Assembly (NCBI RefSeq): GCF_044324785.1
Contig: NZ_CP172127.1
Direction: 5' to 3' (one strand)
Source of the DNA: Escherichia coli
GTDB lineage: Bacteria > Pseudomonadota > Gammaproteobacteria > Enterobacterales > Enterobacteriaceae
DNA length: 64,000 nucleotides
Program-made: the position numbers and the translations under genes
Notes under the pieces: model-generated
What the model was told of the DNA's origin: nothing
What the model saw: only the letters and a program-made list of their open reading frames with translations
The model's database searches: none
Part shown: positions 12,625 through 32,502 of the stretch, in pieces
How positions within the stretch are numbered: position 1 is the first letter of the stretch
Layout of the letters: every line of letters starts with the position of its first letter

Positions 12625-12647
12625 TTATTCTCTCCTGGAGTTAAAAA

Positions 12648-14030: not shown

Positions 14031-14099
14031 AGGCTCATAATTTCTGGTGATTTTATGCCGCCAACTTTACTCGCCAGGCTCTGATTTTCCGGTGACAGG

Positions 14100-14121
14100 A
14101 AAATGACAAAATTGTCATTTT
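14100..14121. promoter_or_regulatory. CusR box in the cusC-cusR divergent control region
   Basis: The palindrome aaaatgacaaaattgtcatttt is read directly in the 156-bp intergenic region. It matches the published CusR-binding inverted repeat (AAAATGACAAnnTTGTCATTTT) as I recall it. Confidence 0.8.
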
Positions 14122-14186
14122 GCCAATAAGCGATTGCCATCTGATCCCGCTACTCTAGAATTGCCCGGGCAACATGCGGAGGAAAT

Positions 14187-14870: not shown

Positions 14871-16308
14871 GCCATTTCAGCGCCCGTTTTCGCTGGCAAC
14901 CCGCCTGACCTTTTTTATCAGCCTGGCCACCATCGCGGCGTTTTTCGCCTTTGCATGGATCATGATCCACTCAGTAAAAGTGCATTTTGCCGAGCAGGAT
15001 ATTAATGATTTAAAAGAGATTAGCGCCACACTCAAGCGCGTTCTTAATCATCCCGAAGAGACACAAGCCCGACGCTTAATGACGCTGGAAGATATCGTCA
15101 GTGGTTATTCCAACGTGTTGATTTCCCTGGCAGATAGCCACGGTAAAACGGTATATCACTCCCCCGGTGCGCCCGATATCCGCGAGTTTGCACGTGATGC
15201 CATACCCGATAAAGACGCGCGGGGCGGCGAGGTGTATCTCCTTTCCGGCCCGACAATGATGATGCCGGGCCACGGTCACGGGCATATGGAACACAGCAAC
15301 TGGCGGATGATTAACTTGCCGATTGGCCCGTTGGTGGACGGCAAACCGATTTATACGCTCTACATCGCGCTTTCGATCGATTTTCATCTTCATTACATAA
15401 ATGATTTGATGAATAAACTTATTATGACCGCATCGATCATCAGCATCCTGATCGTCTTTATCGTGCTATTGGCGGTACATAAAGGTCACGCGCCGATCCG
15501 CAGCGTCAGCCGTCAAATCCAGAATATCACCTCGAAAGATCTCGACGTTCGCCTTGACCCGCAGACCGTGCCGATTGAGCTGGAACAGTTGGTACTGTCG
15601 TTCAACCATATGATCGAGCGTATTGAGGATGTCTTTACCCGCCAGTCCAATTTCTCAGCGGATATCGCCCACGAAATTCGTACACCAATTACGAATCTCA
15701 TAACGCAAACGGAAATCGCCCTCAGCCAGTCGCGCAGCCAGAAGGAGCTGGAAGATGTGCTCTACTCTAATCTCGAAGAGCTGACGCGAATGGCGAAAAT
15801 GGTCAGCGATATGTTGTTTCTCGCCCAGGCCGATAACAACCAGTTAATCCCCGAAAAGAAAATGCTCAACCTGGCGGATGAAGTCGGCAAAGTGTTCGAT
15901 TTTTTCGAGGCGTTAGCGGAAGATCGCGGCGTGGAGTTGCGGTTTGTTGGTGACGAGTGTCAGGTTGCGGGCGATCCGCTGATGTTGCGTCGGGCGTTAA
16001 GCAACCTGCTTTCGAACGCCCTGCGTTATACGCCACCCGGAGAGGCAATTGTTGTGCGCTGCCAGACGGTCGATCACCAGGTGCAAGTTACCGTCGAAAA
16101 CCCCGGTACGCCCATTGCGCCCGAGCACTTACCGCGATTGTTTGACCGTTTCTATCGCGTTGACCCCTCCCGTCAGCGAAAAGGCGAAGGTAGCGGCATT
16201 GGTCTGGCGATAGTGAAATCGATAGTTGTCGCGCATAAAGGCACGGTTGCGGTAACGTCAGATGCGCGGGGGACAAGGTTTATGATCAAACTACCGGAGA
16301 AAGGTTAA
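14860..16308 (+). CDS. cusS: Copper/silver sensor histidine kinase CusS
   Basis: ATG at 14860 (overlapping the cusR stop by 11 nt) gives [19 protein letters not shown].... H-box [12 protein letters not shown] and C-terminal ATPase motifs are present. Confidence 0.94.
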
Positions 16309-17051
16309 TTAGTTAGTTCAAACTCAAAGAGTGATGTATCGCCTTCTGTTATTATTTATCAATAAAACAGGGAAGACCTTATTGGTCGTCTGAAATCGAA
16401 GGTTATTCATTTTCGGATATTTACGAGATATTTAGATATGCAATTTAATCAAATTCGTGTTTCTACCAATTGTAGAGCACAATGCTATTACTAAATTTTC
16501 ATCACTATAAAAGAATCGGCTATAATATAAAGCGCAGTCAGGCATCATTAATCTCTATATTATTCACACAATCTATTTATCAAGTGAATTTGATAAATTC
16601 CTAATTTAAAATATTCACTATTAAGCCAGCGTCTAACGACGTTAAGATGGCAATGTGCAGATCATGTTATCAGGGTGGGGCGGTAGCGTATATTCCTTAT
16701 ACAAACCATCATTCATTTCAATAATATTTATTGAGTTATTTATTATTGTGAATAAAAAGACATTACAAATATTGGTTTAACTTTGCATATCAGGTGTTTT
16801 TTTGTTACTCGATGTAATATACGAGCCTGTCCTTAATAACATCGTGAACCCGTCAGTTGAGTTTGTGATTATTTTGTTGACTCAACAGCCCCCCGTTTCT
16901 CTGAAGTAAAATCCCGGACAAAATTCTCACATAACCATGACACTTTTCTGATATTCCCCGGTAACGCCTGAAGCCGGCCCGCTTATCTCATTACCCGACA
17001 TGTTGTACATGCAATATGTGCGGATTATTATTCATTTTCACGGAGGTTGCT

Positions 17052-18953
17052 ATGTCAACCGGATTACGTTTCACACTGGAAGTGGACGGCCTGCCACCGG
17101 ACGCTTTTGCGGTGGTCTCCTTTCATCTCACCCAGTCACTCTCTTCACTTTTTTCCCTAGACCTTTCTCTGGTCAGTCAGCAGGTTCTCTCCCTTGAATT
17201 TGCGCAGGTGCTGGACAAAATGGCCTACCTGACGGTATGGCAGGGCGATGACGTACAGCGCCGGGTGAAAGGCGTGGTGACCTGGTTTGAACTCGGGGAG
17301 AACGACAAAAACCAGATGCTGTACAGCATGAAGGTGCGCCCGCCGCTGTGGCGGGCAGGACTGCGTCAGAACTTCCGTATCTTCCAGAACGAGGACATCA
17401 GAAGCATCCTCGGCACCATACTGCAGGAAAACGACGTCACGGAGTGGAGCCCGCTGTTCAGCGAGCCGCATCCTTCCCGTGAGTTTTGTGTCCAGTACGG
17501 TGAAACCGATTACGACTTTCTCTGCCGGATGGCAGCGGAGGAAGGCATCTTCTTCTATGAGGAGCACGCGCAGAAAAGTACCGACCAGAGTCTGGTGCTG
17601 TGCGACACGGTCCGCTATCTGCCGGAGTCCTTTGAAATCCCCTGGAACCCGAACACCCGTACCGAGGTGAGCACCCTCTGCATCAGCCAGTTCCGCTACA
17701 GCGCACAAATCCGTCCTTCCTCCGTGGTGACCAAAGACTACACCTTTAAACGCCCCGGCTGGGCCGGGCGTTTTGACCAGGAAGGCCAGCATCAGGATTA
17801 CCAGCGCACACAGTATGAAGTGTATGACTGGCCGGGGCGTTTCAAGAGCGCCCACGGGCAGAACTTTGCCCGCTGGCAGATGGACGGCTGGCGAAACAAC
17901 GCAGAAACCGCGCGGGGAATGAGCCGCTCGCCGGAGATATGGCCGGGACGGCGAATTGTGCTGACGGAGCATCCGCAGGCGAACCTGAACCGGGAATGGC
18001 AGGTGGTGGCGAGCGAACTGCACGGCGAACAGCCGCAGGCGGTGCCGGGACGGCGGGGCGCGGGGACGGCGCTGGAGAACCAGTTTGTGGTAATCCCGGC
18101 AGACCGGACGTGGCGGCCACAGCCGAAGCCAAAGCCGTCAGTGGACGGTCCACAGAGCGCCGTCGTGACGGGGCCTGCGGGAGAGGAAATCTTCTGCGAC
18201 GAGCATGGCCGGGTGCGGGTGAAATTCAACTGGGACCGCTATAACCCGGCCAACCAGGACAGCTCGTGCTGGATACGGGTGGCGCAGGCGTGGGCGGGGC
18301 CGGGATTTGGCAACCTGGCGATACCGCGCGTGGGTCAGGAGGTCATTGTGGACTTCCTCAACGGCGACCCAGACCAGCCCATCATCATGGGCCGCACCTA
18401 TCACCAGGAAAACCGCACCCCCGGCAGCCTGCCGGGAACGAAGACGCAGATGACCATCCGCTCCAAAACATATATGGGCAGCGGGTTTAACGAGCTGAAG
18501 TTTGACGATGCAACAGGGAAAGAACAGGTCTACATCCACGCGCAGAAGAACATGGATACCGAGGTGCTCAACGACCGTACCACCACCGTAAAACACGATC
18601 ACCGCGAAACCGTAAAAAATGACCAGACGGTCACGATCCAGGAAGGTAACCGCCTTCTTACGGTGGCAAAAGGCCACAAAATCACAGGCGTACTAAAAGG
18701 GTCCTTATCTGAGGATGTCTTTCAGGACAGAGGCACGATTGCCGGTTCAGTGCATGTTGACGCTGTAAACAATGGTGGCGAAGGCGACGGTATACAGGCT
18801 TATACGGCGATTAAGCAAATTATGCTGGCCGTGGAGGAAAGCAAAATTGCGCTGACGCCGGATGGCATTCAGCTACAGGTCGGGGAATCGACGGTAATCA
18901 GGCTGTCGAAGGATGGCATCACCATCGTGGGCAGTTCTGTTTTCATCAACTGA
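17052..18953 (+). CDS. vgrG: T6SS spike protein VgrG
   Basis: ATG at 17052, preceded by GGAGG at 17043. 633 aa with the classic VgrG gp27/gp5 core (...SCWIRVAQAWAGPGFGNLAIPRVGQEVIVDFLNGDPDQPIIMGRTYH...). Confidence 0.93.
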   Translation: MSTGLRFTLEVDGLPPDAFAVVSFHLTQSLSSLFSLDLSLVSQQVLSLEFAQVLDKMAYLTVWQGDDVQRRVKGVVTWFELGENDKNQMLYSMKVRPPLWRAGLRQNFRIFQNEDIRSILGTILQENDVTEWSPLFSEPHPSREFCVQYGETDYDFLCRMAAEEGIFFYEEHAQKSTDQSLVLCDTVRYLPESFEIPWNPNTRTEVSTLCISQFRYSAQIRPSSVVTKDYTFKRPGWAGRFDQEGQHQDYQRTQYEVYDWPGRFKSAHGQNFARWQMDGWRNNAETARGMSRSPEIWPGRRIVLTEHPQANLNREWQVVASELHGEQPQAVPGRRGAGTALENQFVVIPADRTWRPQPKPKPSVDGPQSAVVTGPAGEEIFCDEHGRVRVKFNWDRYNPANQDSSCWIRVAQAWAGPGFGNLAIPRVGQEVIVDFLNGDPDQPIIMGRTYHQENRTPGSLPGTKTQMTIRSKTYMGSGFNELKFDDATGKEQVYIHAQKNMDTEVLNDRTTTVKHDHRETVKNDQTVTIQEGNRLLTVAKGHKITGVLKGSLSEDVFQDRGTIAGSVHVDAVNNGGEGDGIQAYTAIKQIMLAVEESKIALTPDGIQLQVGESTVIRLSKDGITIVGSSVFIN

Positions 18954-18980
18954 TTCACTCAGATTAACAGGGAGTATTTT

Positions 18981-19442
18981 ATGCAGTTCACTTTTAATGA
19001 AGGTCATATTCAGCTGCCATCGCAATGGCAGGATCAGTCGATGCAGGTCCTGGTGTCCACAGATAACAGTGGCATCAACCTGGTCATTACCCGCGAACCC
19101 GTTCCACAGGGAACCCTGACACCAGAACTGTACCAGGAAACGCTGGCGCTGTACCAGGGCAAACTTGATGGGTACACCGAACATGCCTGCCGGGAAATCA
19201 CTCTGGCAGAGGCCCCGGCCTGGCTGCTGGATTATTCCTGGAACGGTCCGGAAGATGAAGGGAATCAGGGGCGGATTAGCCAGATAGCCGTATTCCAGCG
19301 GCGTGGAGATACGCTGCTGACCTTCACTTTCAGCACCTCCTTATCCCTGAAGAACAGTCAAAAGACGATGCTGCTGGAGGTGATAAAGAGCTTCACCCCG
19401 TTGCCACCGGAGAATGACATCCAAAAGGACCAGCCGCGCTGA
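18981..19442 (+). CDS. DUF1795/DcrB-fold Eag-type effector chaperone
   Basis: 153 aa. The N-terminus MQFTFNEGHIQLPSQWQDQSMQV is typical of Eag/DUF1795 proteins, and the gene sits between vgrG and a prePAAR effector. Confidence 0.8.
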   Translation: MQFTFNEGHIQLPSQWQDQSMQVLVSTDNSGINLVITREPVPQGTLTPELYQETLALYQGKLDGYTEHACREITLAEAPAWLLDYSWNGPEDEGNQGRISQIAVFQRRGDTLLTFTFSTSLSLKNSQKTMLLEVIKSFTPLPPENDIQKDQPR

Positions 19443-19461
19443 CATAAACGAGGGATAACAC

Positions 19462-22400
19462 ATGAGTGAAGGACCAGGCGGGCCACAGGGAGCGACCGCA
19501 GGCGGTACGCTGGCAATGCGAATGCTGTCACAGCAGGCGATGGTCGCCAGCCAGATGAAACGGGCAGCCAACGACAAAGCCATTGCACAGATGTTGGCAT
19601 CAAAAAAGTCTGGCCCCCCCGCCGCCAGGCTGGGCGATGAAATTCAGCACAAGAGTTTTTTGGGGGCGCTGGCAGGGGCCGTGCTGGGGGCGATAGTGAC
19701 CATCGCAGAAGGTTGCCTGATTATCGCCGCCTGTGCCACCGGCCCTTATGCGCTGGTTCTGGTGCCTGCGCTGATGTATGCCAGCTATAAGGCGAGTGAT
19801 TATGTGGAGGAGAAACAGAACCAGCTTGAATCCTGGATAAACAGCTTTTGTGACAAGGACGGGGCCATCAATACTGGTTCTAAAAATGTAAACATTAACG
19901 GAAAGCCCGCTGCCAGGGCCGCCGTCACACTTCCCCCTCCTCCCCTGACTGAAGCAATACCCTCTCCACCACAGGGGGAACCTTCATGGGGGGATATTGC
20001 CACTGACCTGCTTGAATCGGCAGCGGAAAAAGCAGTGCCACTGGCGAAGGCCTGGGGGAACGCTGTTATCACCCTGACGGACAGCAATGCCAGTTTTATG
20101 GATCGCTTATGTGCAGGCACATCGCTTCTGTTTCCCTACGGCCCGGTATTAATGGAGTTTGCCACCATGGTGGGCGGGCGTGGCGAAATCAAAAAAGACG
20201 TGGATTTCCCGGAAGCCGGTGAAGACACGGCGCTCTGCGACAAGGAGACTAAACCGCCGAGGATAGCCCAGGGCAGCAGCAACGTCTTCATCAACAATCA
20301 GCCTGCCGCGCGCAAGGGCGACAAACTGGAGTGCAGCGCGGCAATCGTGGAAGGTTCGCCGGACGTCTTTATTGGGGGTGAGCAGGTCACCTATCTGGAT
20401 ATCCAGCCGGAGTTCCCGCCGTGGCAGAGAATGATCCTGGGGGGAATAACGATAGCCAGCTATCTTCTGCCGCCAGCGGGACTGCTGGGAAAAATGAAGA
20501 ATCTGGCGAGACTCGGCAAACTGGGAAACCTGCTGGGGAAAAGCGGGAAGCTGCTGGGCGCAAAACTCGGCGCATTGCTGAGCAGAACAAAAAATGCCCT
20601 GAAAAATACGTATAACGTCCTGAAAAAGTTTATCAAAGATCCGGTTGACCCGGTAACCGGCGCGTACTGCGACGAACGTACCGACTTCACCCTGGGCCAG
20701 ACCCTCCCCCTCTCCTTCACCCGTTTCCACAGTTCTGTACTGCCACTGCATGGCCTGACGGGCGTGGGCTGGAGCGACTCCTGGAGCGAATACGCCTGGG
20801 TGCGTGAACAGGGAAACCGGGTGGATATCATCAGCCAGGGAGCCACGCTGTACTTTGCCTTCGACGGAGACAGTGATACGGCGGTTAACCCGTATCACGC
20901 CCAGTATATCCTGCGCCGCCGCGACGATTACCTGGAGCTGTTCGACCGTGATGCCCTGAGCAGCCGCTTCTTTTATGACGCCTTTCCGGGAATGCGCCTG
21001 CGCCACCAGGTGACCGGCGATACCAATGATGACCGCCTGGCACACAGCCCCGGTGACCGGATGTACATGCTGGGCGGAATGAGTGACACCGCCAGCAACC
21101 GCATCACGTTTGAGCGCGACAGTCAGTACCGGATCACGGGTGTCAGTCACACCGACGGGATCCGGCTTAAACTGACGTACCACGCCAGCGGCTACCTGAA
21201 AGCCATTCACCGCACGGATAACGGCATACAGACGCTGGCGACCTACGAACAGGACGAACGGGGACGGCTGACAGAAGCGGATGCGCGGCTGGACTACCAC
21301 CTGTTTTATGAGTACGACGATGCGGACCGGATCATCCGCTGGTCCGATAACGACCAGACGTGGAGCCGTTTCACCTACGATGCACAGGGCCGGTGCGTGA
21401 CCGTCACCGGGGCGGAAGGCTATTACAACGCCACGCTGGACTATGGTGACGGCTGCACTTCCGTGACGGACGGCAAGGGCATTCACCGTTATTACTATGA
21501 TCCTGACGGCAATATCCTGCGGGAAGACGCGCCGGACGGCAGTACCACCACGTATGAATGGGATGAATTCCATCACCTGCTGGCCCGCCACTCCCCTGCC
21601 GGACGGGTGGAGAAATTTGAATACAACGCCGTACACGGTCAGTTAAGCCGTTACACGGCGGCAGACGGCGCGGTGTGGCAGTACCGCTATGATGAGCGCG
21701 GCCTGCTCAGCAACATCACCGACCCTGCCGGGCAGACGTGGACACAGCAGTGTGATGAACGCGGCCTGCCGGTAAGTCTGGTGTCGCCACAGGGCGAAGA
21801 GACCCGGCTGGCGTACACGCCACAGGGGCTGCTGTCGGGGATATTCCGCCAGGATGAACGGCGTCTGGGCATAGAGTACGACCACCACAACCGGCCGGAA
21901 ACACTCACCGACGTGATGGGCCGTGAACACCACACCGAATACAGCGGTCACGACCTGCCGGTGAAGATGCGCGGCCCCGGCGGTCAGTCAGTGCGGTTAC
22001 AGTGGCAGCAGCACCATAAACTGAGTGGCCTTGAGCGGGCAGGAACCGGCGCGGAAGGATTCCGCTACGACCGCCACGGCAACCTGCTGGCGTACACGGA
22101 CGGTAACGGCGTTGTCTGGACAATGGAATACGGCCCGTTCGATTTGCCGGTGGCGCGAACGGACGGTGAAGGCCACCGCTGGCAGTACCGCTACGATAAA
22201 GACACGCTGCAACTGACAGAAGTCATCAATCCGCAGGGTGAGTCATACCGTTATATTCTCGACAACTGTGGCCGGGTGACGGAAGAGCGTGACTGGGGCG
22301 GCGTGGTCTGGCGTTACCGCTATGACGCCGATGGCCTGTGTACCGCCAGGGTTAACGGCCTGGAGGAAACTATCCTCTACAGCCGGGACGCCGCAGGCCG

Positions 22401-24324
22401 CCTGGCAGAAGTCATCACCCCGGAAGGCAAAACGCAGTATGCGTATGACAAATCCGGCAGGCTGACGGGTATCTTCAGCCCGGACGGCACATCACAGCGC
22501 ACCGGCTACGACGAACGCGGGCGGGTGAATGTCACCACTCAGGGCAGACGGGCCATTGAGTACCACCACCCCGATGAACACACCGTTATCCGCTGTATCC
22601 TGCCACCGGAAGATGAACGCGACAGACACCCCGGTGAATCCCTGCTGAAAACCACCTACCGCTACAACGCCGCCGGAGAACTGACGGAGGTTATCCTGCC
22701 GGGGGATGAGACGCTGACGTTCAGCCGTGATGAGGCAGGACGTGAAGTGCTCCGGCACAGTAACCGGGGTTTTGCCTGTGAACAGGGCTGGAATGCAGCC
22801 GGTCAGCTTACCAGCCAGCGCGCCGGATTTTTCCCGGCGGAAGCCACATGGGGCGGACTGCTCCCCTCACTGGTGCGGGAGTACCGTTACGACAGCGCGG
22901 GCAATGTGTCGGCTGTCACCAGCCGGGAAGACTACGGACGGGAAACACGGCGGGAGTACCGGCTGGACCGGAACGGCCAGGTCACAACGGTGACAGCCTC
23001 AGGCACCGGGCTGGGCTATGGCGAAGGCGACGAGACTTATGGCTATGACAGCTGCGGCTACCTGAAGGCGCAGTCTGCGGGCAGGCACCGGATAAGTGAA
23101 GAGACTGACCAGTATGCCGGAGGCCACCGGCTGAAACAGGCCGGAAACACGCAGTATGACTATGACGCCGCAGGCCGGATGGTCAGCCGCACCAGACACC
23201 GTGACGGCTACCGCCCGGAAACAGAGCGGTTCCGGTGGGACAGCCGGGACCAGCTGACCGGGTATTGCAGCGCACAGGGGGAGCAGTGGGAATACCGCCA
23301 CGACGCCAGCGGCAGGCGGACGGAAAAACGCTGCGACCGGAAGAAAATCCGTTTTACGTACCTGTGGGACGGCGACAATATTGCGGAAATCCGGGAATAC
23401 CGCGATGATAAACTGTACAGCGTACGGCACCTGGTGTTTAACGGCTTTGAGCTGGTAAGCCAGCAGTGCAGCCGGGTACGGCAGGCGCATCCGTCCGTGG
23501 CCCCGCAGTGGGTGACGCGAACGAATTATGCGGTGAGCGACCTGACAGGCCGCCCGCTGATGCTCTTTAACAGTGAAGGTAAAACCGTCTGGCGGCCGGG
23601 ACAGACCAGCCTGTGGGGGCTGGCACTCAGCCTGCCCGCAGACACCGGCTACCCGGACCCGCGCGGGGAACTGGACCCGGAAGCCCCCCCCGGCCTGCTG
23701 TATGCGGGACAGTGGCAGGATACGGAATCGGGGCTGTGCTATAACCGGTTCCGGTATTACGAGCCGGAAACCGGAATGTACCTGGTGAGTGATCCGCTGG
23801 GGTTGCAGGGAGGTGAGCAGACTTACCGGTATGTGCCTAATCCTTGTGGGTATGTTGATCCGCTGGGGCTGGCAAAAACCAGTATTATAAAATCTTCTAC
23901 AGGCAAAATCCCACAAGGGTTAACAAAAAGCGAATTTGAGATTTTTTCAAAAAAATTAAAGGATGTATTAGCCCGAGAGGGAATCTCGACAGAGAATGTG
24001 TTTGTACATGGCAGTAGAGCCAGAGGAGATGCTGTATCAGGTGTTTCAGATATTGATATAAAAGTGATCCTTAGTGATAAAGATTTTGGTGCCTTTGCAG
24101 CAAGACGTATTGCTGAGTCCTCAGGAAGGACTCGAAATTTAATCAGGAAGGCCGTTGCTAAAAATCAAAAAATAAATTCAAGAGGAATTTCTAAAACTTT
24201 TGAATCTACTGTATGGGATGAGGTTTTCACTACCTTACCAAAAGGTGAGTTTTCAAGCATTCAAGTTTCTGTTATGACCAAAACTTCACCATTCAACACT
24301 AATCCGAGTATTATATTACCATGA
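19462..24324 (+). CDS. prePAAR/PAAR-Rhs T6SS effector with C-terminal nucleotidyltransferase-like toxin domain
   Basis: 1620 codons. Features in order: prePAAR-like AARLGDEIQH (19621-19650), hydrophobic helices, PAAR motifs (GKPAARA; NQPAARKGD), numerous YD repeats, and the core end DPLGLQGGEQTYRYVPNPCGYVDPLGL (ends 23871). An AT-rich 150-codon CT follows, containing HGSRARGDAVSGVSDIDIKV. Confidence 0.93.
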   Translation: MSEGPGGPQGATAGGTLAMRMLSQQAMVASQMKRAANDKAIAQMLASKKSGPPAARLGDEIQHKSFLGALAGAVLGAIVTIAEGCLIIAACATGPYALVLVPALMYASYKASDYVEEKQNQLESWINSFCDKDGAINTGSKNVNINGKPAARAAVTLPPPPLTEAIPSPPQGEPSWGDIATDLLESAAEKAVPLAKAWGNAVITLTDSNASFMDRLCAGTSLLFPYGPVLMEFATMVGGRGEIKKDVDFPEAGEDTALCDKETKPPRIAQGSSNVFINNQPAARKGDKLECSAAIVEGSPDVFIGGEQVTYLDIQPEFPPWQRMILGGITIASYLLPPAGLLGKMKNLARLGKLGNLLGKSGKLLGAKLGALLSRTKNALKNTYNVLKKFIKDPVDPVTGAYCDERTDFTLGQTLPLSFTRFHSSVLPLHGLTGVGWSDSWSEYAWVREQGNRVDIISQGATLYFAFDGDSDTAVNPYHAQYILRRRDDYLELFDRDALSSRFFYDAFPGMRLRHQVTGDTNDDRLAHSPGDRMYMLGGMSDTASNRITFERDSQYRITGVSHTDGIRLKLTYHASGYLKAIHRTDNGIQTLATYEQDERGRLTEADARLDYHLFYEYDDADRIIRWSDNDQTWSRFTYDAQGRCVTVTGAEGYYNATLDYGDGCTSVTDGKGIHRYYYDPDGNILREDAPDGSTTTYEWDEFHHLLARHSPAGRVEKFEYNAVHGQLSRYTAADGAVWQYRYDERGLLSNITDPAGQTWTQQCDERGLPVSLVSPQGEETRLAYTPQGLLSGIFRQDERRLGIEYDHHNRPETLTDVMGREHHTEYSGHDLPVKMRGPGGQSVRLQWQQHHKLSGLERAGTGAEGFRYDRHGNLLAYTDGNGVVWTMEYGPFDLPVARTDGEGHRWQYRYDKDTLQLTEVINPQGESYRYILDNCGRVTEERDWGGVVWRYRYDADGLCTARVNGLEETILYSRDAAGRLAEVITPEGKTQYAYDKSGRLTGIFSPDGTSQRTGYDERGRVNVTTQGRRAIEYHHPDEHTVIRCILPPEDERDRHPGESLLKTTYRYNAAGELTEVILPGDETLTFSRDEAGREVLRHSNRGFACEQGWNAAGQLTSQRAGFFPAEATWGGLLPSLVREYRYDSAGNVSAVTSREDYGRETRREYRLDRNGQVTTVTASGTGLGYGEGDETYGYDSCGYLKAQSAGRHRISEETDQYAGGHRLKQAGNTQYDYDAAGRMVSRTRHRDGYRPETERFRWDSRDQLTGYCSAQGEQWEYRHDASGRRTEKRCDRKKIRFTYLWDGDNIAEIREYRDDKLYSVRHLVFNGFELVSQQCSRVRQAHPSVAPQWVTRTNYAVSDLTGRPLMLFNSEGKTVWRPGQTSLWGLALSLPADTGYPDPRGELDPEAPPGLLYAGQWQDTESGLCYNRFRYYEPETGMYLVSDPLGLQGGEQTYRYVPNPCGYVDPLGLAKTSIIKSSTGKIPQGLTKSEFEIFSKKLKDVLAREGISTENVFVHGSRARGDAVSGVSDIDIKVILSDKDFGAFAARRIAESSGRTRNLIRKAVAKNQKINSRGISKTFESTVWDEVFTTLPKGEFSSIQVSVMTKTSPFNTNPSIILP
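21559..23844 (+). repeat. rhs core direct repeat, copy A (within the full-length rhs)
   Basis: Aligns with 27298-29583 at a constant offset of 5739 nt. The first ~80 nt are diverged and the rest is near-identical by eye. Confidence 0.9.
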
Positions 24325-24671
24325 AGAAAAAAGATATTAGATTTGCAATATCCATTAACTCCAACTTAAGTAAGATAGAATTAATGGAAAAAATTAAAAA
24401 TATAATCCCAGGGCTTATTGAAATAACTTCCAGTGCATTAAGAGAAGAAAAAAACATGGTAGTTATTGAAGAAAATGATCTTTATGACCCTATAAAAGCA
24501 GAGGGAGCTGATGGATGGATGTATTATAAATTCATATTATCCATATTCCCATTAAAGGGAGTGGAAACAACATTAGAATATCAACGGGAATTATCTTTTC
24601 TTTTCTTAAAGAAAATAAAAGATGCGGGCCTGTTGGGTGAACTTATATGCGAGGATGATTTTCATGACTGA
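24321..24671 (+). CDS. Presumptive cognate immunity protein of the Rhs NTase-like CT
   Basis: 116-codon AT-rich ORF whose ATG overlaps the rhs stop (ATGA), the usual Rhs CT/immunity arrangement. I recognise no motif in it. Confidence 0.7.
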   Translation: MKKKDIRFAISINSNLSKIELMEKIKNIIPGLIEITSSALREEKNMVVIEENDLYDPIKAEGADGWMYYKFILSIFPLKGVETTLEYQRELSFLFLKKIKDAGLLGELICEDDFHD

Positions 24672-24730
24672 TGACCTCTACATATATCCTCAGTTCGTGG
24701 CTGGTATTACATGATCTGACAGGGAAAGAT

Positions 24731-24880
24731 CGTGGCGAAATCAAAAAAGACGTGGATTTCCCGGAAGCCGGTGAGGACACGGCGCTCTGCGACAAGGAGA
24801 ACAAACCACCGAGGATAGCCCAGGGCAGCAGCAACGTCTTCATCAACAATCAGCCTGCCGCACGCAAAGGGGACAAACTG
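24731..24880 (+). pseudogene. 150-bp fragment of an rhs PAAR region
   Basis: Matches 20179-20328 of the main rhs (RGEIKKDVDFPEAGEDTALCDKE[N/T]KPPRIAQGSSNVFINNQPAARKGDKL). It is truncated on both sides and abuts the ISEc1 left end. Confidence 0.85.
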
Positions 24881-26171
24881 CAGGGAAAGATCACGTAACG
24901 CTGCTTTTTTGTACTAAATAATTCGCATTTTATGTTTAAAAATTGAGATATTCCTCATTACCTAAAGCTGTTTTTTATTGCTTATACATGATCAAATACT
25001 CCTTACATAATTAAGGAGAACAAAATGGAACTTAAAAAATTGATGGAACATATTTCTGTTATCCCCGATTACAGACAAGCATGGAAAGTAGAACATAAAT
25101 TGTCAGATATTCTACTGTTGACTATTTGCGCCGTCATTTGTGGTGCAGAAGGCTGGGAAGATATAGAGGATTTTGGTGAAACACATCTCGATTTTTTGAA
25201 GCAATATGGTGATTTTGAAAATGGTATTCCTGTCCACGATACCATTGCCAGAGTTGTATCCTGTATCAGTCCTGCAAAATTTCACGAGTGCTTTATTAAC
25301 TGGATGCGAGATTGCCATACTTCAGATGATAAAGACGTTATTGCAATCGATGGAAAAACACTCCGGCATTCTTATGACAAGAGTCGCCGCAGGGGAGCGA
25401 TTCATGTCATTAGTGCGTTCTCAACAATGCACAGTCTGGTCATCGGACAGATCAGGACGGATGAGAAATCTAATGAGATTACAGCTATCCCAGAACTTCT
25501 TAACATGCTGGATATTAAAGGAAAAATCATCACAACTGATGCGATGGGTTGCCAGAAAGATATTGCAGAGAAGATACAAAAACAGGGCGGTGATTATTTA
25601 TTCGCTGTAAAAGGAAATCAGGGGCGGCTTAATAAAGCCTTTGAGGAAAAATTCCCACTGAAAGAATTAAATAATCCAGAGCATGATAGTTACGCAATTA
25701 GTGAAAAGAGTCACGGCAGAGAAGAAATCCGACTTCATATTGTTTGCGATGTCCCTGATGAACTTATTGATTTCACGTTTGAATGGAAAGGGCTGAAGAA
25801 ATTATGCATAGCAGTCTCCTTTCGCTCAATAATAGCAGAGCAAAAGAAAGAGCCAGAAATGACGGTCAGATATTATATCAGTTCTGCTGATTTAAACACA
25901 GAAAAGTTCGCCACAGCAATCCGAAACCACTGGCACGTGGAGAATAAGCTGCACTGGCGTCTGGATGTGGTAATGAATGAAGACGACTGCAAAATAAGAA
26001 GAGGAAATGCAGCAGAATTATTTTCAGGGATACGGCACATCGCTATTAATATTTTGACGAATGATAAGGTATTCAAGGCAGGGTTAAGACGTAAGATACG
26101 AAAAGCAGCTATGGACAGAAACTACATGGCGTCAGTCCTTGCGGGGAGCGGGCTTTCGTAATCTTTCCCTG
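24881..26171 (+). mobile_element. ISEc1 (H-repeat, ISAs1 family), copy 1
   Basis: Imperfect terminal inverted repeats: cagggaaagatcacgtaacg on the left, and ...cgtaatctttccctg on the right. The element encloses the H-repeat-associated transposase ORF. Confidence 0.88.
25025..26161 (+). CDS. ISAs1-family (H-repeat-associated, YhhI-like) transposase
   Basis: 378 aa, [37 protein letters not shown]..., recognisable as the E. coli Rhs-associated H-rpt protein. AAGGAG SD upstream. Confidence 0.9.
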
Positions 26172-26396
26172 GACATGACGATTATTGTTCGTTCAAATCC
26201 GAGTAAAGCCGCTATTCTTGAAGAATTTTTACATGGTACACAAGAGAAACTAGGAATAGCTGAAAAATTAGGACGTTATGGACTAGGGAGTGCAGAAACG
26301 CACGTTAAGGATTTCATGATAAGACACAAAAAAATGCTTGGGTTATCTGATGAGGATGTAGCAATACTCAAAATATTGAAAGACAAGGGGTTGTGA
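26172..26396 (+). pseudogene. C-terminal stub of an orphan polymorphic-toxin CT, truncated by ISEc1
   Basis: The open frame starts exactly at the IS right end (…DMTIIVRSNPSKAAILEEFLHGTQEKLG…KDKGL). Its stop overlaps the next ATG (TGATG), as in toxin/immunity pairs. Confidence 0.55.
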
Positions 26397-26683
26397 TGAA
26401 TATAATTCTGCCGATAAAAGATATATTTATTATTGCGGGAAACATAGTTTTTAGCGTTTTATACAATGAACATATTGAGTTCCCATGCCGCTGCCAATTA
26501 CTATCTTCAAATTCTGAAGTTATGCAAGAGTTATATATTGAAAAAGAGTTATTTATTAAACGCACTACAGAAAATGATTGTCGTGCTTTAGTGTTAAGAG
26601 GAACATTGGAATACTTATTTGATGAAATTATTGCTGGCGATTGTGCATTGGCCTTATTACAAAAAGAAATAAAAAAAGATTAA
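26396..26683 (+). CDS. Presumptive orphan immunity protein 2
   Basis: 95-codon AT-rich ORF overlapping the upstream stub's stop by 1 nt. No recognisable motif. Confidence 0.55.
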   Translation: MNIILPIKDIFIIAGNIVFSVLYNEHIEFPCRCQLLSSNSEVMQELYIEKELFIKRTTENDCRALVLRGTLEYLFDEIIAGDCALALLQKEIKKD

Positions 26684-26699
26684 TCCAATATGTAGAACT

Positions 26700-26905
26700 G
26701 GACAATACCCATCTTTTAACAATGAACTTCGTAATTTTTATCTTAGAAATAATGCTACATTATATGAGGTATATCATGAAGTAATTCATGCCAAGCAATT
26801 TGCGAAAATATTTCTATCGGAGGTGCTGATGCACCATCTAATATGAGACTTATGGATATAATGACACATACAACTCATCATAAATATTACAGGCCTTGGG
26901 AATGA
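26700..26905 (+). pseudogene. Decayed orphan toxin CT with HExxH (zinc-metallopeptidase-like) motif
   Basis: One frame reads ...NELRNFYLRNNATLYEVYHEVIHAKQFAKI... and stops at 26844. Another frame, open from 26780, continues ...GGADAPSNMRLMDIMTHTTHHKYYRPWE* to 26905. This is consistent with a 1-nt frameshift near the A-run at ~26804. There is no rhs core upstream. Confidence 0.6.
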
Positions 26906-27264
26906 TAAATAAAATAGTGAAAAAAATGTTGGTTTCATATAGCCCTAAGAAACCGGAGTCTAGGGGCGGGGATTTTGTTATTCCGTTGTTTTTTAATGAG
27001 AAAGTTTCTTTTTTTAGCATAAAAAGTGGCAAGCCAGTGCGATATGGTCTTATGGTATTTACAGGGAAAGTAATTACCATAGATGATATTCTTAGTAAAG
27101 TTCGTTTTCCTGATGTTATGAATGAGCAAAATATTCAACCGTTAATTGACTTTATTAATAACATTAGCGATTTTAAAATAGGGGATGTTATTGAAATTGA
27201 TGATAATGGTAAATTGAAAGTTGTGCCAAAATCAGCAGGACACCCTGTGAGTAAATTGCCATGA
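26902..27264 (+). CDS. Presumptive orphan immunity protein 3
   Basis: 120-codon ORF from the ATG at 26902, overlapping the stub stop as ATGA. AT-rich, with no recognisable motif. Confidence 0.55.
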   Translation: MINKIVKKMLVSYSPKKPESRGGDFVIPLFFNEKVSFFSIKSGKPVRYGLMVFTGKVITIDDILSKVRFPDVMNEQNIQPLIDFINNISDFKIGDVIEIDDNGKLKVVPKSAGHPVSKLP

Positions 27265-27297
27265 TACTTAAGGGGCCTGATTTTCTGTTTTTGCCAG

Positions 27298-29583
27298 TGG
27301 GACGAATACCATCACCTGCTGGCGAGGCTGTCTCCGGCAGGACGGCTGGAAAAGTTTGACTATCATCTGACACTCGGTCAGTTAAGCCGTTACACGGCGG
27401 CAGACGGCGCGGAGTGGCAGTACCGCTATGATGAGCGCGGCCTGCTCAGCAACATCACCGACCCTGCCGGGCAGACGTGGACACAGCAGTGCGATGAACG
27501 CGGCCTGCCGGTGAGTCTGGTGTCGCCACAGGGCGAAGAGACCCGGCTGGCGTACACCGCTCAGGGGCTGCTGTCGGGGATATTCCGCCAGGATGAACGG
27601 CGTCTGGGCATAGAGTACGACCACCACAACCGGCCGGAAACACTCACCGACGTGATGGGCCGTGAACACCACACCGAATACAGCGGTCACGACCTGCCGG
27701 TGAAGATGCGCGGCCCCGGCGGTCAGTCAGTGCGCTTACAGTGGCAGCAGCACCATAAACTGAGCGGCATTGAACGTGCTGGAACCGGCGCGGAAGGATT
27801 TCGCTATGACCGCCACGGCAACCTGCTGGCCTGGACGGACGGCAACGGTGTTGACTGGACAATGGAATACGGCCCGTTTGATTTGCCGGTGGCGCGAACG
27901 GACGGTGAAGGCCACCGCTGGCAGTACCGCTACGATAAAGACACGCTGCAACTGACAGAAGTCATCAATCCGCAGGGCGAGTCATACCGTTATATTCTCG
28001 ACAACTGTGGGCGGGTGACGGAAGAGCATGACTGGGGCGGCGTGGTCTGGCGTTACCGCTATGACGCCGATGGTCTGTGTACCGCCAGGGTTAACGGCCT
28101 GGAGGAAACCATCCTCTACAGCCGGGACGCCGCAGGCCGCCTGGCAGAAGTCATCACCCCGGAAGGGAAAACGCAGTATGCGTATGACAAATCCGGCAGG
28201 CTGACGGGTATCTTCAGCCCGGACGGCACATCACAGCGCACCGGCTACGACGAACGCGGGCGGGTGAATGTCACCACTCAGGGCCGACGGGCCATTGAAT
28301 ACCACCACCCCGATGAACACACCGTCATCCGCTGTATCCTGCCACCGGAAGATGAACGCGACAGACACCCCGGTGAATCCCTGCTGAAAACCACCTACCG
28401 CTACAACGCCGCCGGAGAACTGACGGAGGTTATCCTGCCGGGGGATGAGACGCTGACGTTCAGCCGTGATGAGGCAGGACGTGAAGTGCTCCGGCACAGT
28501 AACCGGGGTTTTGCCTGTGAACAGGGCTGGAATGCAGCCGGTCAGCTTACCAGCCAGCGCGCCGGATTTTTCCCGGCGGAAGCCACATGGGGCGGACTGC
28601 TCCCCTCACTGGTGCGGGAGTACCGTTACGACAGCGCGGGCAATGTGTCGGCTGTCACCAGCCGGGAAGACTACGGACGGGAAACACGGCGGGAGTACCG
28701 GCTGGACCGGAACGGCCAGGTCACAACGGTGACAGCCTCAGGCACCGGGCTGGGCTATGGCGAAGGCGACGAGACTTATGGCTATGACAGCTGCGGCTAC
28801 CTGAAGGCGCAGTCTGCGGGCAGGCACCGGATAAGTGAAGAGACTGACCAGTATGCCGGAGGCCACCGGCTGAAACAGGCCGGAAACACGCAGTATGACT
28901 ATGACGCCGCAGGCCGGATGGTCAGCCGCACCAGACACCGTGACGGCTACCGCCCGGAAACAGAGCGGTTCCGGTGGGACAGCCGGGACCAGCTGACCGG
29001 GTATTGCAGCGCACAGGGGGAGCAGTGGGAATACCGCCACGACGCCAGCGGCAGGCGGACGGAAAAACGCTGCGACCGGAAGAAAATCCGTTTTACGTAC
29101 CTGTGGGACGGCGACAATATTGCGGAAATCCGGGAATACCGCGATGATAAACTGTACAGCGTACGGCACCTGGTGTTTAACGGCTTTGAGCTGGTAAGCC
29201 AGCAGTGCAGCCGGGTACGGCAGGCGCATCCGTCCGTGGCCCCGCAGTGGGTGACGCGAACGAATTATGCGGTGAGCGACCTGACAGGCCGCCCGCTGAT
29301 GCTCTTTAACAGTGAAGGTAAAACCGTCTGGCGGCCGGGACAGACCAGCCTGTGGGGGCTGGCACTCAGCCTGCCCGCAGACACCGACTACCCGGACCCG
29401 CGCGGGGAGCTGGACCCGGAAGCCGACCCCGGCCTGCTGTATGCAGGACAGTGGCAGGATACGGAATCAGGGCTGTGCTATAACCGGTTCCGGTACTACG
29501 AGCCGGAAACCGGAATGTACCTGGTGAGTGATCCGCTGGGGTTGCAGGGGGGTGAGCAGACTTACCGGTATGTGCCGAATCCT
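27298..29583 (+). repeat. rhs core direct repeat, copy B (orphan)
   Basis: See copy A. The offset is 5739 nt, and homology ends at the codon after the shared ...VPNP. Confidence 0.9.
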
Positions 29584-30051
29584 TTAAGATATAAAGATTT
29601 CTATGGGCTTAGTAAGAGTTCAATAATAACGAGAGGAAAGAATGCTGGTCATGGCTATGCAGCCAGCGTTACACCTGGAGGCAAAGGTACGGTGTTGGCT
29701 GGTCACGGAGGATCAAAATTTGGCGATAAAATGATTATACCAGAAGGCGTATCGATAACGATGCCGAGAGATGGTATTAAAATATCAGATATGACTGGAA
29801 AATTACTGGAATCTGGTAATGTGGATGATATAATTAAAGCTGCAAGTAATAATCCTCGTGTAGCTAGCGATCTTGAAGGTTGGGTTACTTATTTGCCCGG
29901 CACTGAAATCCCTGATTATATTTTAAAACCACCCACCAATCTTAACATACTGGAAAATTCAGTAACGGTGAACACTTCAACTTATTTATCTCAAATGGTA
30001 AATGCTGGTCAAGGTAATGTAATCTGGGCTGCATGCACCGAATTTTTTTAA
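27298..30051 (+). pseudogene. Orphan 5'-truncated rhs core with an intact alternative CT toxin domain
   Basis: The frame is open stop-to-stop from 27265 with no plausible start or N-terminal PAAR region. 27298-29583 parallels the main rhs core. It diverges after ...YRYVPNP into a distinct AT-rich 155-codon CT (LRYKDFYGLSKSSIITRGKNAGHGY...VIWAACTEFF). Confidence 0.85.
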
Positions 30052-30065
30052 CGCGGGGTAATCGT

Positions 30066-30548
30066 ATGTATTTTAAAGATGATACTGACTATACATATTT
30101 CCTTCCTAATGAATATTTTTTACACGGGGTGAAAAATGTGGGCTGGATAGACAGAGAACACCCCTTCACAAAAGGGATTAGTGACGCTGAATTTATTGAA
30201 AAGTTAAAAGCAATAATTCTAACAGAGAATGAAGCAACTTGTTTTTCAGTTAATAAAATAAGAGGATTTCACAAATGTAATTTTTGCAATAGTGAAATGA
30301 TAACAATAACCGATGGAAGAAAAAAAGGATACCTTGGCATGAGTGAAATATGGATTCCATCCATCCACCATAATGAGTATTACGCGTTTCCTTCATTAAT
30401 TTTCCATTATATAACATCTCACATGTATAGACCACCAGAGGACTTTATTGTATCTGTTTTAAACTTGAATTTAAGCGAGAGTTTTTGCGCTCAAAACATA
30501 TATGACAATAAAATTAAGGAATTAAAAATAGACTTCTGGTTTCGTTAA
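30066..30548 (+). CDS. Presumptive immunity protein of the orphan Rhs CT
   Basis: 160-codon AT-rich ORF from the ATG at 30066, 15 nt after the orphan rhs stop. It contains HKCNFCNSE. The annotated start at 30033 would overlap the toxin end and was not used. Confidence 0.6.
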   Translation: MYFKDDTDYTYFLPNEYFLHGVKNVGWIDREHPFTKGISDAEFIEKLKAIILTENEATCFSVNKIRGFHKCNFCNSEMITITDGRKKGYLGMSEIWIPSIHHNEYYAFPSLIFHYITSHMYRPPEDFIVSVLNLNLSESFCAQNIYDNKIKELKIDFWFR

Positions 30549-30568
30549 AGCTGGTAATTTAACTTATC

Positions 30569-30665
30569 GGGAATACCGCTATGATGGCAGTTTCAGACGG
30601 ACGGAGAAATGCTGTCAGCAAAAAGACTTCCGCTTCGCGTATCTGTGGGGCATGGGGATAATTTA
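30569..30665 (+). pseudogene. Diverged rhs core scrap
   Basis: Reads (W)EYRYDGSFRRTEKCCQQKDFRFAYLWG, paralleling WEYRHDASGRRTEKRCDRKKIRFTYLWDG of the main rhs (around 23286-23385) but clearly more diverged. Confidence 0.6.
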
Positions 30666-30732
30666 TCTTCATCAATTGATATATTGATTAATGGCAAGGA
30701 GGCCATTGAAATTCCGTAAGGCCAACTTGATA

Positions 30733-30914
30733 TGACGCCTGGCACACAGCCCCGGTGACCGGATGTATATGCTGGGCGGGATGAGCGACACCGCCAGCAA
30801 CCGCATCACGTTTGAGCGCGACAGCCAGTACCGGATCACGGGTGTCAGTCACACCGACGGGATCCGGCTTAAACTGACGTACCACGCCAGCGGCTACCTG
30901 AAAGCCATTCACCG
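30733..30914 (+). pseudogene. rhs core fragment (N-proximal part of the core) truncated by an IS end
   Basis: Matches 21036-21217 of the main rhs (LAHSPGDRMYMLGGMSDTASNRITFERDSQYRITGVSHTDGIRLKLTYHASGYLKAIHR). It ends at an H-repeat left terminus. Confidence 0.8.
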
Positions 30915-31023
30915 CAGGGAAAGATCACGTAACGCTGCTTTTTTGTACTAAGCAATTCGCATTTTATGTTCAGTATTTGAGATACTCCTTATAACACAAA
31001 CCTGTTTTTCATAGCTTATATAT
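30915..31023 (+). mobile_element. Solo, diverged H-repeat/ISEc1 left-end fragment
   Basis: Starts with cagggaaagatcacgtaacgctgcttttttgtacta, like the IS left end, then diverges from the canonical copy. It is cut off by the next complete copy. Confidence 0.7.
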
Positions 31024-32315
31024 GTAGGAAAAGATCACGTAACGCTCCTTTTTTGTACTAAATAATTCGCATTTTATGTTTAAAAATTGAGATATTCCTC
31101 ATTACCTAAAGCTGTTTTTTATTGCTTACACATGATCAAATACTCCTTACATAATTAAGGATAACAAAATGTAACTTAAAAAATTGATGGAACATATTTC
31201 TATTATCCCCGATTACAGACAAGCCTGGAAAGTGGAACATAAATTATCGGATATTCTACTGTTGACTATTTGTGCCGTTATTTCGGGTGCAGAAGGTTGG
31301 GAAGATATAGAGGATTTTGGGGAAACACATCTCGATTTTTTAAAACAATATGGTGATTTTGAAAATGGTATTCCTGTTCACGATACCATTGCCAGAGTTG
31401 TATCCTGTATCAGCCCTGCAAAATTTCACGAGTGCTTTATTAACTGGATGCGAGATTGCCATACTTCAGATGATAAAGACGTCATCGCAATTGATGGAAA
31501 AACACTCCGGCATTCTTATGGCAAGAGTCGCCGCAGGGGAGCGATTCATGTCATTAGTGCGTTCTCAACAATGCACAGTCTGGTCATCGGACAGATCAGG
31601 ACGGATGAGAAATCCAATGAAATTACAGCTATCCCTGAACTTCTTAACATGCTGGATATTAAAGGAAAAATCATCACAACTGATGCAATGGGTTGCCAGA
31701 AAGATATTGCAGAGAAGATACAAAAACAGGGCGGTGATTATTTATTCGCTGTAAAAGGAAATCAGGGGCGGCTTAATAAAGCCTTTGAGGAAAAATTTCC
31801 ACTGAAAGAATTAAATAATCCAGAGCATGACAGTTACGCCATTAGTGAAAAGAGTCACGACAGAGAAGAAATCCGTCTTCATATTGTTTGCGATGTCCCT
31901 GATGAACTTATTGATTTCACGTTTGAATGGAAAGGACTGAAGAAATTATGCGTGGCAGTCTCCTTTCGGTCAATAATAGCAGAACAAAAGAAAGAGCCAG
32001 AAATGACGGTCAGATATTATATCAGTTCTGCTGATTTAACCGCAGAGAAGTTCGCCACAGCAATCCGAAACCACTGGCACGTGGAGAATAAGCTGCACTG
32101 GCGTCTGGACGTGGTAATGAATGAAGACGACTGCAAAATAAGAAGAGGAAATGCAGCAGAATTATTTTCAGGGATACGGCACATCGCTATTAATATTTTG
32201 ACGAATGATAAGGTATTCAAGGCAGGGTTAAGACGTAAGATGCGAAAAGCAGCCATGGACAGAAACTATCTCGCGTCAGTCCTTGCTGGGAGCGGGCTTT
32301 CGTAATCTTTCCCTG
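31024..32315 (+). mobile_element. ISEc1 (H-repeat, ISAs1 family), copy 2
   Basis: The left end taggaaaagatcacgtaacg has 2 mismatches to copy 1. The right end ...cgtaatctttccctg finishes at 32315. Same length class as copy 1. Confidence 0.85.
31187..32305 (+). CDS. ISAs1-family transposase, copy 2, N-terminally compromised
   Basis: The canonical start has ATG-TAA (31169-31174) where copy 1 has ATG-GAA, and the SD is AAGGAT rather than AAGGAG. The frame is otherwise intact from the internal ATG at 31187 ([15 protein letters not shown]...). Confidence 0.6.
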
Positions 32316-32502
32316 CGTTAACCGCCCCTCCTTGACACCACGCTTTTGTCTACATTCTACGCAAACGGCAACTTTTATAACCAGTGTAAAAATAACGTGC
32401 CGCAATAGTCATACCTATTAATGGTAAAAAGCTGTCACAATTCATAAAAAACCTTAATATACGCCACCCTAAACATAACCAGCGTTAATGTAAGGTTTTT
32501 GT

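Follow-up and report, generated by a model that had tools for sequence, protein, structure and literature searches.

Evidence for natural fusions, probably by deletion, between the main and orphan core copies of an Escherichia coli Rhs array

Rhs arrays are thought to diversify weaponry by tip shuffling, and direct evidence for the activation of orphan tips comes mainly from laboratory-evolved Salmonella. Here we describe an rhs array in a stretch of 64,000 nt from Escherichia coli (NCBI RefSeq assembly GCF_044324785.1, contig NZ_CP172127.1; this whole stretch is called the window), in which a main gene encoding a PAAR-Rhs protein is followed by an orphan rhs gene that shares 2.3 kb of the Rhs core with it. 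The Rhs elements of E. coli K-12 studied by the Hill laboratory in the 1980s and 1990s reportedly combine a GC-rich core, an AT-rich extension, a small downstream open reading frame (ORF), partial core repeats and distal H-rpt/ISAs1 elements, and their cores are said to have been the first that were recognised as substrates for RecA-dependent unequal crossing-over. The K-12 elements are not known to have the vgrG, EagR-type and PAAR context found here, and their classic rearrangement reportedly took place between the distant loci rhsA and rhsB, not within one array. In work attributed to Poole et al. in 2011, orphan cdiA-CT/cdiI modules located 3’ of cdiBAI are said to be silent cassettes with upstream homology allowing possible fusion; they belong to two-partner secretion delivery and reportedly retain a much shorter homology than the one seen here.

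The array resembles STM0291/STM0292 of Salmonella Typhimurium LT2, where a full-length Rhs gene linked to a type VI secretion system (T6SS) is followed by a start-less, in-frame orphan with its own tip and immunity gene, and where the main immunity gene is lost when recombination joins the orphan tip to the main gene. In Salmonella, 522 bp at 95% identity were enough for recombination between main gene and orphan (Koskiniemi et al. 2014, PMC3967940), whereas the homology in the window comprises 2286 nt at 97.3% identity with a perfect tract of 1060 nt. Unlike in Salmonella, the interval between the two copies is 5.7 kb long and contains an insertion sequence (IS) element and older tip remnants, and the recombinants come from natural isolates and not from laboratory passage. 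A first-pass annotation of the window, made by a model from the sequence alone, had mentioned that orphan activation was shown experimentally for Salmonella and had pictured a cell without immunity to the toxin of its siblings. The precedent is real, but its authors proposed that a duplication comes first, so that immunity is retained (PMC3967940); no such duplication was seen here, where a test for it was out of reach. Also in Salmonella, orphan tips were reported to be expressed internally as toxin-antitoxin pairs (Starsta et al.).

The array lies in the cusS/nfrB rhs island of E. coli, a position that corresponds to rhs locus 4 of Jackson et al. 2009 (PMC2935791). At the same locus these authors described dissociated tips with core fragments downstream of an intact rhs gene, and they explained them by a circular-intermediate model with C-terminal displacement, in which recombination between attached and dissociated cores was proposed to excise or insert a circle. 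While this was inferred across strains and species, here both states are found with 0-2 single nucleotide differences (SNPs) over more than 20 kb of flank, and the junctions are mapped. The locus is thus a textbook Rhs array of main gene and orphan, the mechanism is already known and none is new. More than routine are the predicted recombinants, a competing IS deletion and a conversion footprint, all visible among isolates that are nearly identical at the locus. Such natural isolates offer defined junctions and two uncharacterised toxin/immunity pairs as a testable system, suited for asking whether tip switching alters natural competition and how cells survive the loss of immunity to their siblings’ toxin.

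The main rhs gene (19462 to 24324; like the other features of the array and its vgrG side, on the plus strand) is intact and encodes 1620 amino acids (aa) with a PAAR domain, DUF6531, ten RHS repeat stretches and a C-terminal NTP_transf_2 domain according to Pfam. PAAR scored 58.7 bits (cutoff 27), and prePAAR_I was weak with 22.8 bits, below its 25-bit cutoff. The orphan (27298 to 30051) consists of 2286 nt of core and a Stv tip, is devoid of the N-terminal region, and has its first possible in-frame start, a GTG, at 27511. As proposed in the first-pass annotation, positions 21559 to 23844 of the main gene (copy A) and 27298 to 29583 of the orphan (copy B) form a direct repeat with a constant offset of 5739 nt in the same frame, in which 2224 of 2286 positions are identical (97.3%). 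The offset equals 3 x 1913, each copy follows the reading frame of the long rhs ORF, and directly outside both repeat ends the identity is at the background of ~25-30%. The divergence noted earlier at the 5’ edge is confined to the first 77 nt (21559 to 21635) with 23 mismatches (~70% identity); the two edge peptides quoted for it were recovered exactly, and past this edge the substitutions between the copies are scattered, as had been claimed. Twelve perfect tracts of at least 30 nt sum up to 1829 nt, the longest comprising 1060 nt (22588 to 23647, identical to 28327 to 29386). Checked by alignment, these identity tracts are far above the length needed for RecA-dependent recombination. Judged from its length and identity, a chance origin of the repeat can be regarded as excluded.

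At its 3’ end the repeat stops with the P codon of the motif PxxxxDPxGL, between both DPxG motifs. In the main protein the shell ends with SDPLG, 18 residues and VDPLGL (motif at 23842 to 23871). The orphan has DPLG, 18 residues and DFYG, the second motif being degenerate. This second autoproteolysis motif of the orphan (29581 to 29610) reads PLRYKDFYGL, compared to PCGYVDPLGL in the main gene. At the tip boundary (23845/29584) identity falls from ~95% to ~30%, and the two tips match different Pfam families. The main tip (23845 to 24324), which starts inside PxxxxDPxGL, is nucleotidyltransferase (NTase)-like (PF01909, E = 2e-6), and the predicted orphan toxin tip (29584 to 30051) belongs to Stv (PF21527). 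Since the repeat ends between the DPxG motifs, a swap would move each tip as a unit together with the second motif. Behind each tip lies a candidate immunity gene. The putative NTase immunity gene (24321 to 24671, 116 aa) overlaps the rhs stop with its ATG (ATGA), and the Pfam search of its product gave zero matches; the DUF7919 gene (30066 to 30548, 160 aa; PF25535, E = 4e-34) is the putative Stv immunity gene, and 959 blocks of the assembly index list its exact protein. The functions as toxin or immunity protein are predictions, and so is any effect on fitness.

The reading that we consider highly probable is that of an Rhs array of main gene and orphan whose core copies recombine and give natural deletion fusions. 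The expressed gene would be a T6SS-type PAAR-Rhs effector with an NTase tip and an immunity gene. Downstream of it would lie displaced tips, the largest of them in a promoter-less, start-less orphan with 2.3 kb of core, the Stv tip and the DUF7919 gene. A non-reciprocal exchange would have given the orphan ~1 kb of main-type sequence. By a reciprocal crossover 5739 nt would be lost, comprising the NTase tip with its immunity gene as well as ISEc1 copy 1 and two older immunity remnants; what is left would encode a 1616-aa PAAR-Rhs protein ending in the Stv tip, with the DUF7919 gene behind it. In other assemblies a competing deletion between the two ISEc1 copies has removed the orphan.

To find such products, chimeric proteins were built for a crossover in each interval between amino-acid differences, and four of them were looked up by exact sequence in a public protein collection. 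The main protein, counted by the same exact look-up, served as positive control and was present on 9 public contigs. Two of the four chimeras (b=244 and b=710) are exact public entries, and the other two have no exact entry in this collection. One entry, P0006, is the chimera for a crossover after 23687 and was found on 99 contigs (NCBI and Logan), with GCA_044082275.1 and GCA_044084935.1 among its assemblies; the other, P0008, is the one for a crossover anywhere in 22290 to 23647 and was found on 4 contigs, with GCA_044104375.1 and GCA_002468915.1 among its assemblies. Thus, the fusion of PAAR-Rhs to the orphan tip that is expected from the 5739-nt deletion predicted in the first-pass annotation is present in nature: both configurations exist among public E. 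coli assemblies. All 24 contigs that were read, some up to 104 kb long, carry the fused context and fall into two such contexts. On contigs with P0006 the order is cusS, vgrG, the EagR-type gene, a 1616-aa Rhs with Stv, DUF7919, an rhs fragment, ISEc1 copy 2 and nfrB. Contigs of both chimeras follow the predicted gene order.

Both configurations, with their sequences and gene content, and the junction intervals can be read directly from the assemblies. The locus L026, which carries P0006, corresponds to window positions 9462 to 23825 joined to 29565 to 40051, has the same length and differs at 2 of 24,851 nt. Its diagnostic SNPs are main-type through 23811 and orphan-type from 23838, which places the junction in 23812 to 23837, a 26-nt identity block (= 29551 to 29576) that holds the junction of P0006 in both L026 and L027. 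The two loci with P0008, L028 and L029, are main-type through 22587 and orphan-type from 23648, and their junction accordingly lies inside the 1060-nt perfect tract; L029 equals the in-silico recombinant at 7,974 of 7,974 positions. Upstream of the repeat (window 9462 to 21558, or the covered part of it) L022, L024, L025, L026 and L027 show 0 mismatches to the window, L018 shows 23 and L019 to L021 show ~136. Judged from gene content, fused cells would have lost the NTase immunity gene, as foreseen. The junctions fall within stretches of identity measuring 26, 81 and 1060 nt, from which we infer that the recombination depends on RecA.

In L028 (GCA_002468915.1) the block of vgrG, EagR-type gene, Rhs-Stv and DUF7919 has an IS fragment upstream, and downstream of ISEc1 it is followed by a CN-hydrolase gene, ivy and a fadE-like acyl-CoA dehydrogenase gene. 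Jackson et al. 2009 (PMC2935791) list fadE as a neighbour of two further rhs loci in E. coli, which suggests a large ISEc1-mediated rearrangement.

Other deletions have occurred in the same lineage. The exact main protein of the window is present in eight assemblies, two of which, L019 and L020, are of the two-copy type. In L018 and L022 a hybrid ISEc1 was formed by a crossover in the interval 24904 to 24984, and 6144 nt including the orphan, the Stv tip and the DUF7919 gene are missing. In L021 (GCA_019012885.1) a deletion extends from within ISEc1 copy 1 (~25752) to ~34619, where nfrA begins in the contig. The L021 deletion removes the orphan and also nfrB (in RefSeq a cyclic-di-GMP-activated glycosyltransferase gene next to the phage adsorption gene nfrA).

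Several observations weigh against the reading of natural deletion fusions. First, the commonest recombinant was joined in the 26-nt block and not in the 1060-nt tract. This block holds 0.1-0.4% of the crossover weight computed from the repeat of the window, and therefore a simple crossover in the window’s own sequence does not predict the common junction. It may be that a conversion tract reaching 23811 existed in the parent, which would yield P0006 from any crossover within the tract; alternatively, one rare junction event may have been expanded clonally. Second, a search with the in-silico recombinant showed that the fused arrangement is absent from our comparison set of 5,426 complete RefSeq E. 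coli genomes, to which all statements on complete genomes refer. However, none of these genomes comes near the window here (over the 12 kb upstream, the best one reaches 97.8% identity), and the lack of a fused complete genome therefore says little. For this reason we dropped the absence as counter-evidence. For 9462 to 21500 (cus and vgrG) the best complete genome likewise reaches 97.8%, and dozens of draft assemblies are identical; the lineage of the window is well sampled in drafts and has no finished genome in the RefSeq complete set. Third, each configuration could also be turned into the other when a circle of 5739 nt integrates or when homologous DNA is imported. Finally, L028 and L029 are joined at a place where assembly from short reads could go wrong, P0008 is absent from Logan, and assemblies with the fused gene may also contain the NTase tip on a small contig, the NTase immunity protein being found on contigs shorter than 5 kb in 85 index blocks.

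Sequence exchange between the core copies is also visible in the two-copy genomes. Strain N3 is the only complete genome (1 of 5,426) with the same arrangement as the window. The two differ by 1-2% from 13000 to ~22828 and are identical from ~22829 to 39624, where collinearity stops, except for a tract in the orphan. The break at ~22829 means that an inter-lineage exchange has one end inside the rhs core. In the orphan core there are 42 substitutions between the window and N3 at 28410 to 29340, and the orphan of the window is here identical to the main copies of both strains. About half of the 42 sites private to the N3 orphan are alleles of other rhs cores, and 26 of them are at third codon positions. 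The simplest reading appears to be a main-to-orphan conversion tract of 931-1060 nt in the lineage of the window; a different crossover point during displacement is an alternative. Two explanations by artefact were considered and rejected. The 42 SNPs are not sequencing errors of N3, because L014 shares all of them and about half are known in other rhs cores. Likewise, the 1060-nt tract is not an artefact of assembly or polishing, because the independent assembly L036 reproduces it, matching the converted orphan of the window with 1 mismatch in 7,023 nt. No identical donor of the orphan variant of N3 and L014 was found among the 5,426 genomes, the next best match being 96.9%.

When 12 core copies from six genomes were compared, perfect tracts longer than 500 nt were confined to copies of one and the same genome and to the counterpart copies of the window and its near-relative N3. 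Within genomes they measured 1254 nt (orphans 1 and 2 of DETEC-S792), 869 nt (main gene and orphan 3 of the same strain) and 1060 nt (main gene and orphan of the window), and the longest perfect core tract shared by unrelated genomes was 281 nt. The orphan core of L019 and L020 (locus positions 17834 to 20120) is a different mosaic, though their main Rhs protein is identical to that of the window: it has N3-main-type alleles at the equivalents of ~22100 to 22830 and N3-orphan alleles from the equivalent of 23109. This pattern points to repeated exchange among core copies and alleles. The orphan core of the window (copy B) is itself a mosaic of a diverged edge (27298 to 27374), a 5’ part of the orphan lineage, the main-identical segment (28327 to 29386) and a Stv-linked 3’ end. 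In the first-pass annotation the diverged edge was taken as a trace of past recombination with a different rhs lineage. The divergence itself stands, but the edge is better read as an unconverted remnant of a different core lineage. The edge variant was never found inside a full-length rhs gene in the 5,426 genomes. The 5’ junction of the orphan with the upstream immunity gene is present in 3 other complete genomes only, and across them three different tips follow; one of these tips is in main position in EC38 and similar genomes and in orphan position in PS2Canimalfeces12.

How far the repeat is poised for switching is a separate question. It is quite possible, if somewhat short of an even chance, that the orphan is a displaced tip in decay, retained above all for the sake of its immunity gene, and that the deletions are incidental and neutral or deleterious. 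Among complete genomes, N3 alone has the Stv tip in full length, and the same is true of the NTase tip. In 57 others the DUF7919 gene (99.8-100% nucleotide identity) is present next to a truncated Stv stub, which means that this gene is accompanied by a mere toxin stub in 57 of 58 genomes, and a truncated NTase stub with the downstream immunity gene is kept in 139 others, the module being reduced to a stub in 139 of 140. Decay is further suggested by the deletions between the ISEc1 copies and the larger deletion, which simply remove the orphan in the same lineage, and by the fact that a fused cell would lose the NTase immunity gene together with two other orphan immunity genes; in addition, the present data give no sign of regulation or selection. 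On the other hand, 99 contigs with the fused form compared to 9 with the intact main protein are hard to square with strong counter-selection, although a sampling bias is possible, and the equivalent recombinant in Salmonella was positively selected (PMC3967940). In all other genomes that keep them, the Stv stub and the NTase stub are cut at one and the same nucleotide each (query positions 373 and 263), and each module of stub and immunity gene looks like a single old truncation that later spread.

The events could also have taken place in the reverse direction, which we consider unlikely. In that case the fused PAAR-Rhs-Stv would be older, and the two-copy form would have arisen by C-terminal displacement pushing the Stv tip downstream, after core, NTase tip, immunity gene, ISEc1 and older remnants had recombined into the core, either as a circle of 5739 nt or as linear DNA imported from a donor resembling N3. 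This is the published model of Jackson for the formation of arrays (PMC2935791), and it fits the identity between the window and N3 downstream of ~22829 with 1-2% difference upstream, i.e., an inter-lineage exchange ending inside the main core. It would also explain the orphan of the window as core of the orphan lineage to 22587 and of L028 type from 22588, no separate conversion being needed, and in the sample the fused protein outnumbers the intact main one about tenfold. Deletion is nevertheless the direction that the sequences favour over insertion, for three reasons. The two-copy arrangement is also present in N3, L014 and L019-L020, the flanks of which are 1-2% diverged from the window, and it thus predates the lineage of the window. 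L026 combines an upstream flank identical to that of the window, and 1-2% different from N3, with a right flank identical to that of N3: the window differs from L026 by 0, 1 and 1 mismatches in tip, ISEc1 and downstream region (~10 kb) and from N3 by 0, 1 and 0. Since L026 already carries the N3-like right-hand sequence, it looks like a descendant of the two-copy form. And in L026 the NTase-linked alleles at 23648 to 23811 are coupled to the Stv tip, which is the signature of a recombinant and not an original allele. Moreover, the two fused junctions and the ISEc1 deletion can each be reached by one intrachromosomal event from the window type, whereas the reverse direction would need horizontal import plus further events.

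That the orphan is not silent, being transcribed from a promoter inside the conserved core and acting within the cell with its immunity protein as a toxin-antitoxin pair, is likewise unlikely, and would be compatible with deletion fusion as the fate of the array. Such expression was reported for a Salmonella rhs orphan (Starsta et al.), and the corresponding region lies inside the repeat here. Promoter-like sites in 24300 to 30700 are, however, at the shuffled expectation (14 versus 11.8 expected), and the first in-frame start, the GTG mentioned above, is far upstream of the tip; the promoter and terminator scan as a whole was at shuffled expectation and uninformative on orphan expression.

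It is very unlikely that the fused contigs are assembly artefacts of two-copy genomes, in which the assembler passed from the main core into the orphan tip: although most assemblies involved are short-read drafts, short reads cannot phase the 1060-nt repeat that holds the L028/L029 junction, L036 starts at 23649, so that contigs do break at the tract end, and the number of index blocks in which small contigs (under 5 kb) carry the NTase immunity gene (85) comes close to that of blocks with P0006 (100), the SNPs at the P0006 junction are only 27 nt apart (23811 and 23838) and spanned by single reads, every contig read was fused, one index block has a contig longer than 1 Mb, and P0006 is recorded in full length also from Logan assemblies. 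The k-mer-graph assemblies of Logan would fragment at a duplicated core. An artefact is thus very improbable for P0006; for P0008 it is conceivable, if doubtful, and P0008 is probably real.

Based on the deletion fusions, it is tempting to speculate that tip switching is a recurrent switch with consequences within the lineage and not only an occasional accident, although we give this rather low odds. The speculation is prompted by the assemblies with identical flanks, which include not only the parental array but also two fusions of independent origin and an ISEc1 deletion, by the roughly tenfold higher frequency of the Stv fusion than of the intact parental protein in the sample, and by the junction in the last 26-nt identity block before the tip, which is expected for less than 0.5% of crossovers. 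If so, one of three causes would be indicated: recombinants with a complete native shell may be favoured by selection; earlier conversion from main gene to orphan may extend the identity step by step to the tip boundary, by which orphans would stay ready for recombination; or exchange may be biased to the tip-proximal end.

Additional searches were performed with the orphan and the two tips. The structure prediction for the Stv tip was poor, with a mean predicted local distance difference test (pLDDT) score of 52, and sequence searches of the PDB with both tips gave nothing significant. The product of the orphan ORF, with V or M as first residue, has no exact entry in the public protein collection. 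Only 5 short proteins were obtained when homologues of the Stv tip were searched for; since full-length Rhs proteins are clustered in the database at 90% under representatives with other tips, this search cannot show fusions. In scans, no relatives of the Stv tip were found in species-representative genomes, the degenerate pattern of the diverged 5’ edge of the orphan had no match, and neither had the core/Stv boundary sequence in metagenomes.

Upstream of the main rhs gene lies vgrG (17016 to 18953), which encodes the T6SS spike protein (Pfam Phage_GPD, E = 4e-75, Phage_base_V and Gp5_trimer_C; VgrG in the N3 annotation). Between vgrG and rhs sits a gene of the DcrB/DUF1795 family (18981 to 19442; DcrB PF08786, E = 6e-28), the product of which, considering its family and position, may be an EagR-type effector chaperone. 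T6SS core genes were not found within the 64-kb window.

The interval between the two core copies contains what the earlier description had listed: the NTase tip with its immunity gene, then ISEc1 copy 1, and the remnants of two more tip/immunity modules. ISEc1 copy 1 (24879 to 26171) belongs to the ISAs1 family (H-repeat), has a transposase gene at 25025 to 26161 with DDE_Tnp_1_assoc and DDE_Tnp_1, and is annotated as ISEc1 in N3 and other RefSeq genomes. Its left end is abutted by a 153-nt fragment of the PAAR region (24731 to 24883, a copy of 20179 to 20331). The first remnant (26172 to 26784) is a displaced tip module with two small ORFs, and its counterparts (99%) lie just 3’ of the main rhs gene in EC38 (L003) and 3’ of the orphan in PS2Canimalfeces12 (L004). 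The second (26809 to 27264) is a zincin-type toxin stub with a putative immunity ORF (26896 to 27264) according to the N3 annotation; the TGA at 27262 to 27264, the end of this ORF, closes the frame just 5’ of the orphan. In DETEC-S792 a long rhs-core orphan, annotated as RHS pseudogene, is located directly upstream of the same zincin-module immunity gene.

Downstream of the DUF7919 gene a 185-nt rhs fragment (30736 to 30920, a copy of 21034 to 21218) abuts ISEc1 copy 2 (31023 to 32315; DDE_Tnp_1_assoc and DDE_Tnp_1), which is a direct repeat of copy 1 with an offset of 6144. Both ISEc1 copies are 1293 nt long and 96.2% identical, with a longest perfect block of 131 nt. In L012 the fragment at 30736 to 30920 extends into a 2.8-kb orphan with another tip. 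Since rhs fragments abut the left ends of both ISEc1 copies and one of them continues in L012, ISEc1 appears to have truncated earlier orphans. Just upstream of copy 2, at 30911 to 31134, part of the left end of ISEc1 is duplicated in tandem over 114 nt, with 86% and 95% identity to the end of copy 1. Further downstream, 39625 to 64000 is a lambdoid prophage (tail tip J, tape measure and capsid) located after envY, where N3 has tRNA-Arg and fimZ.

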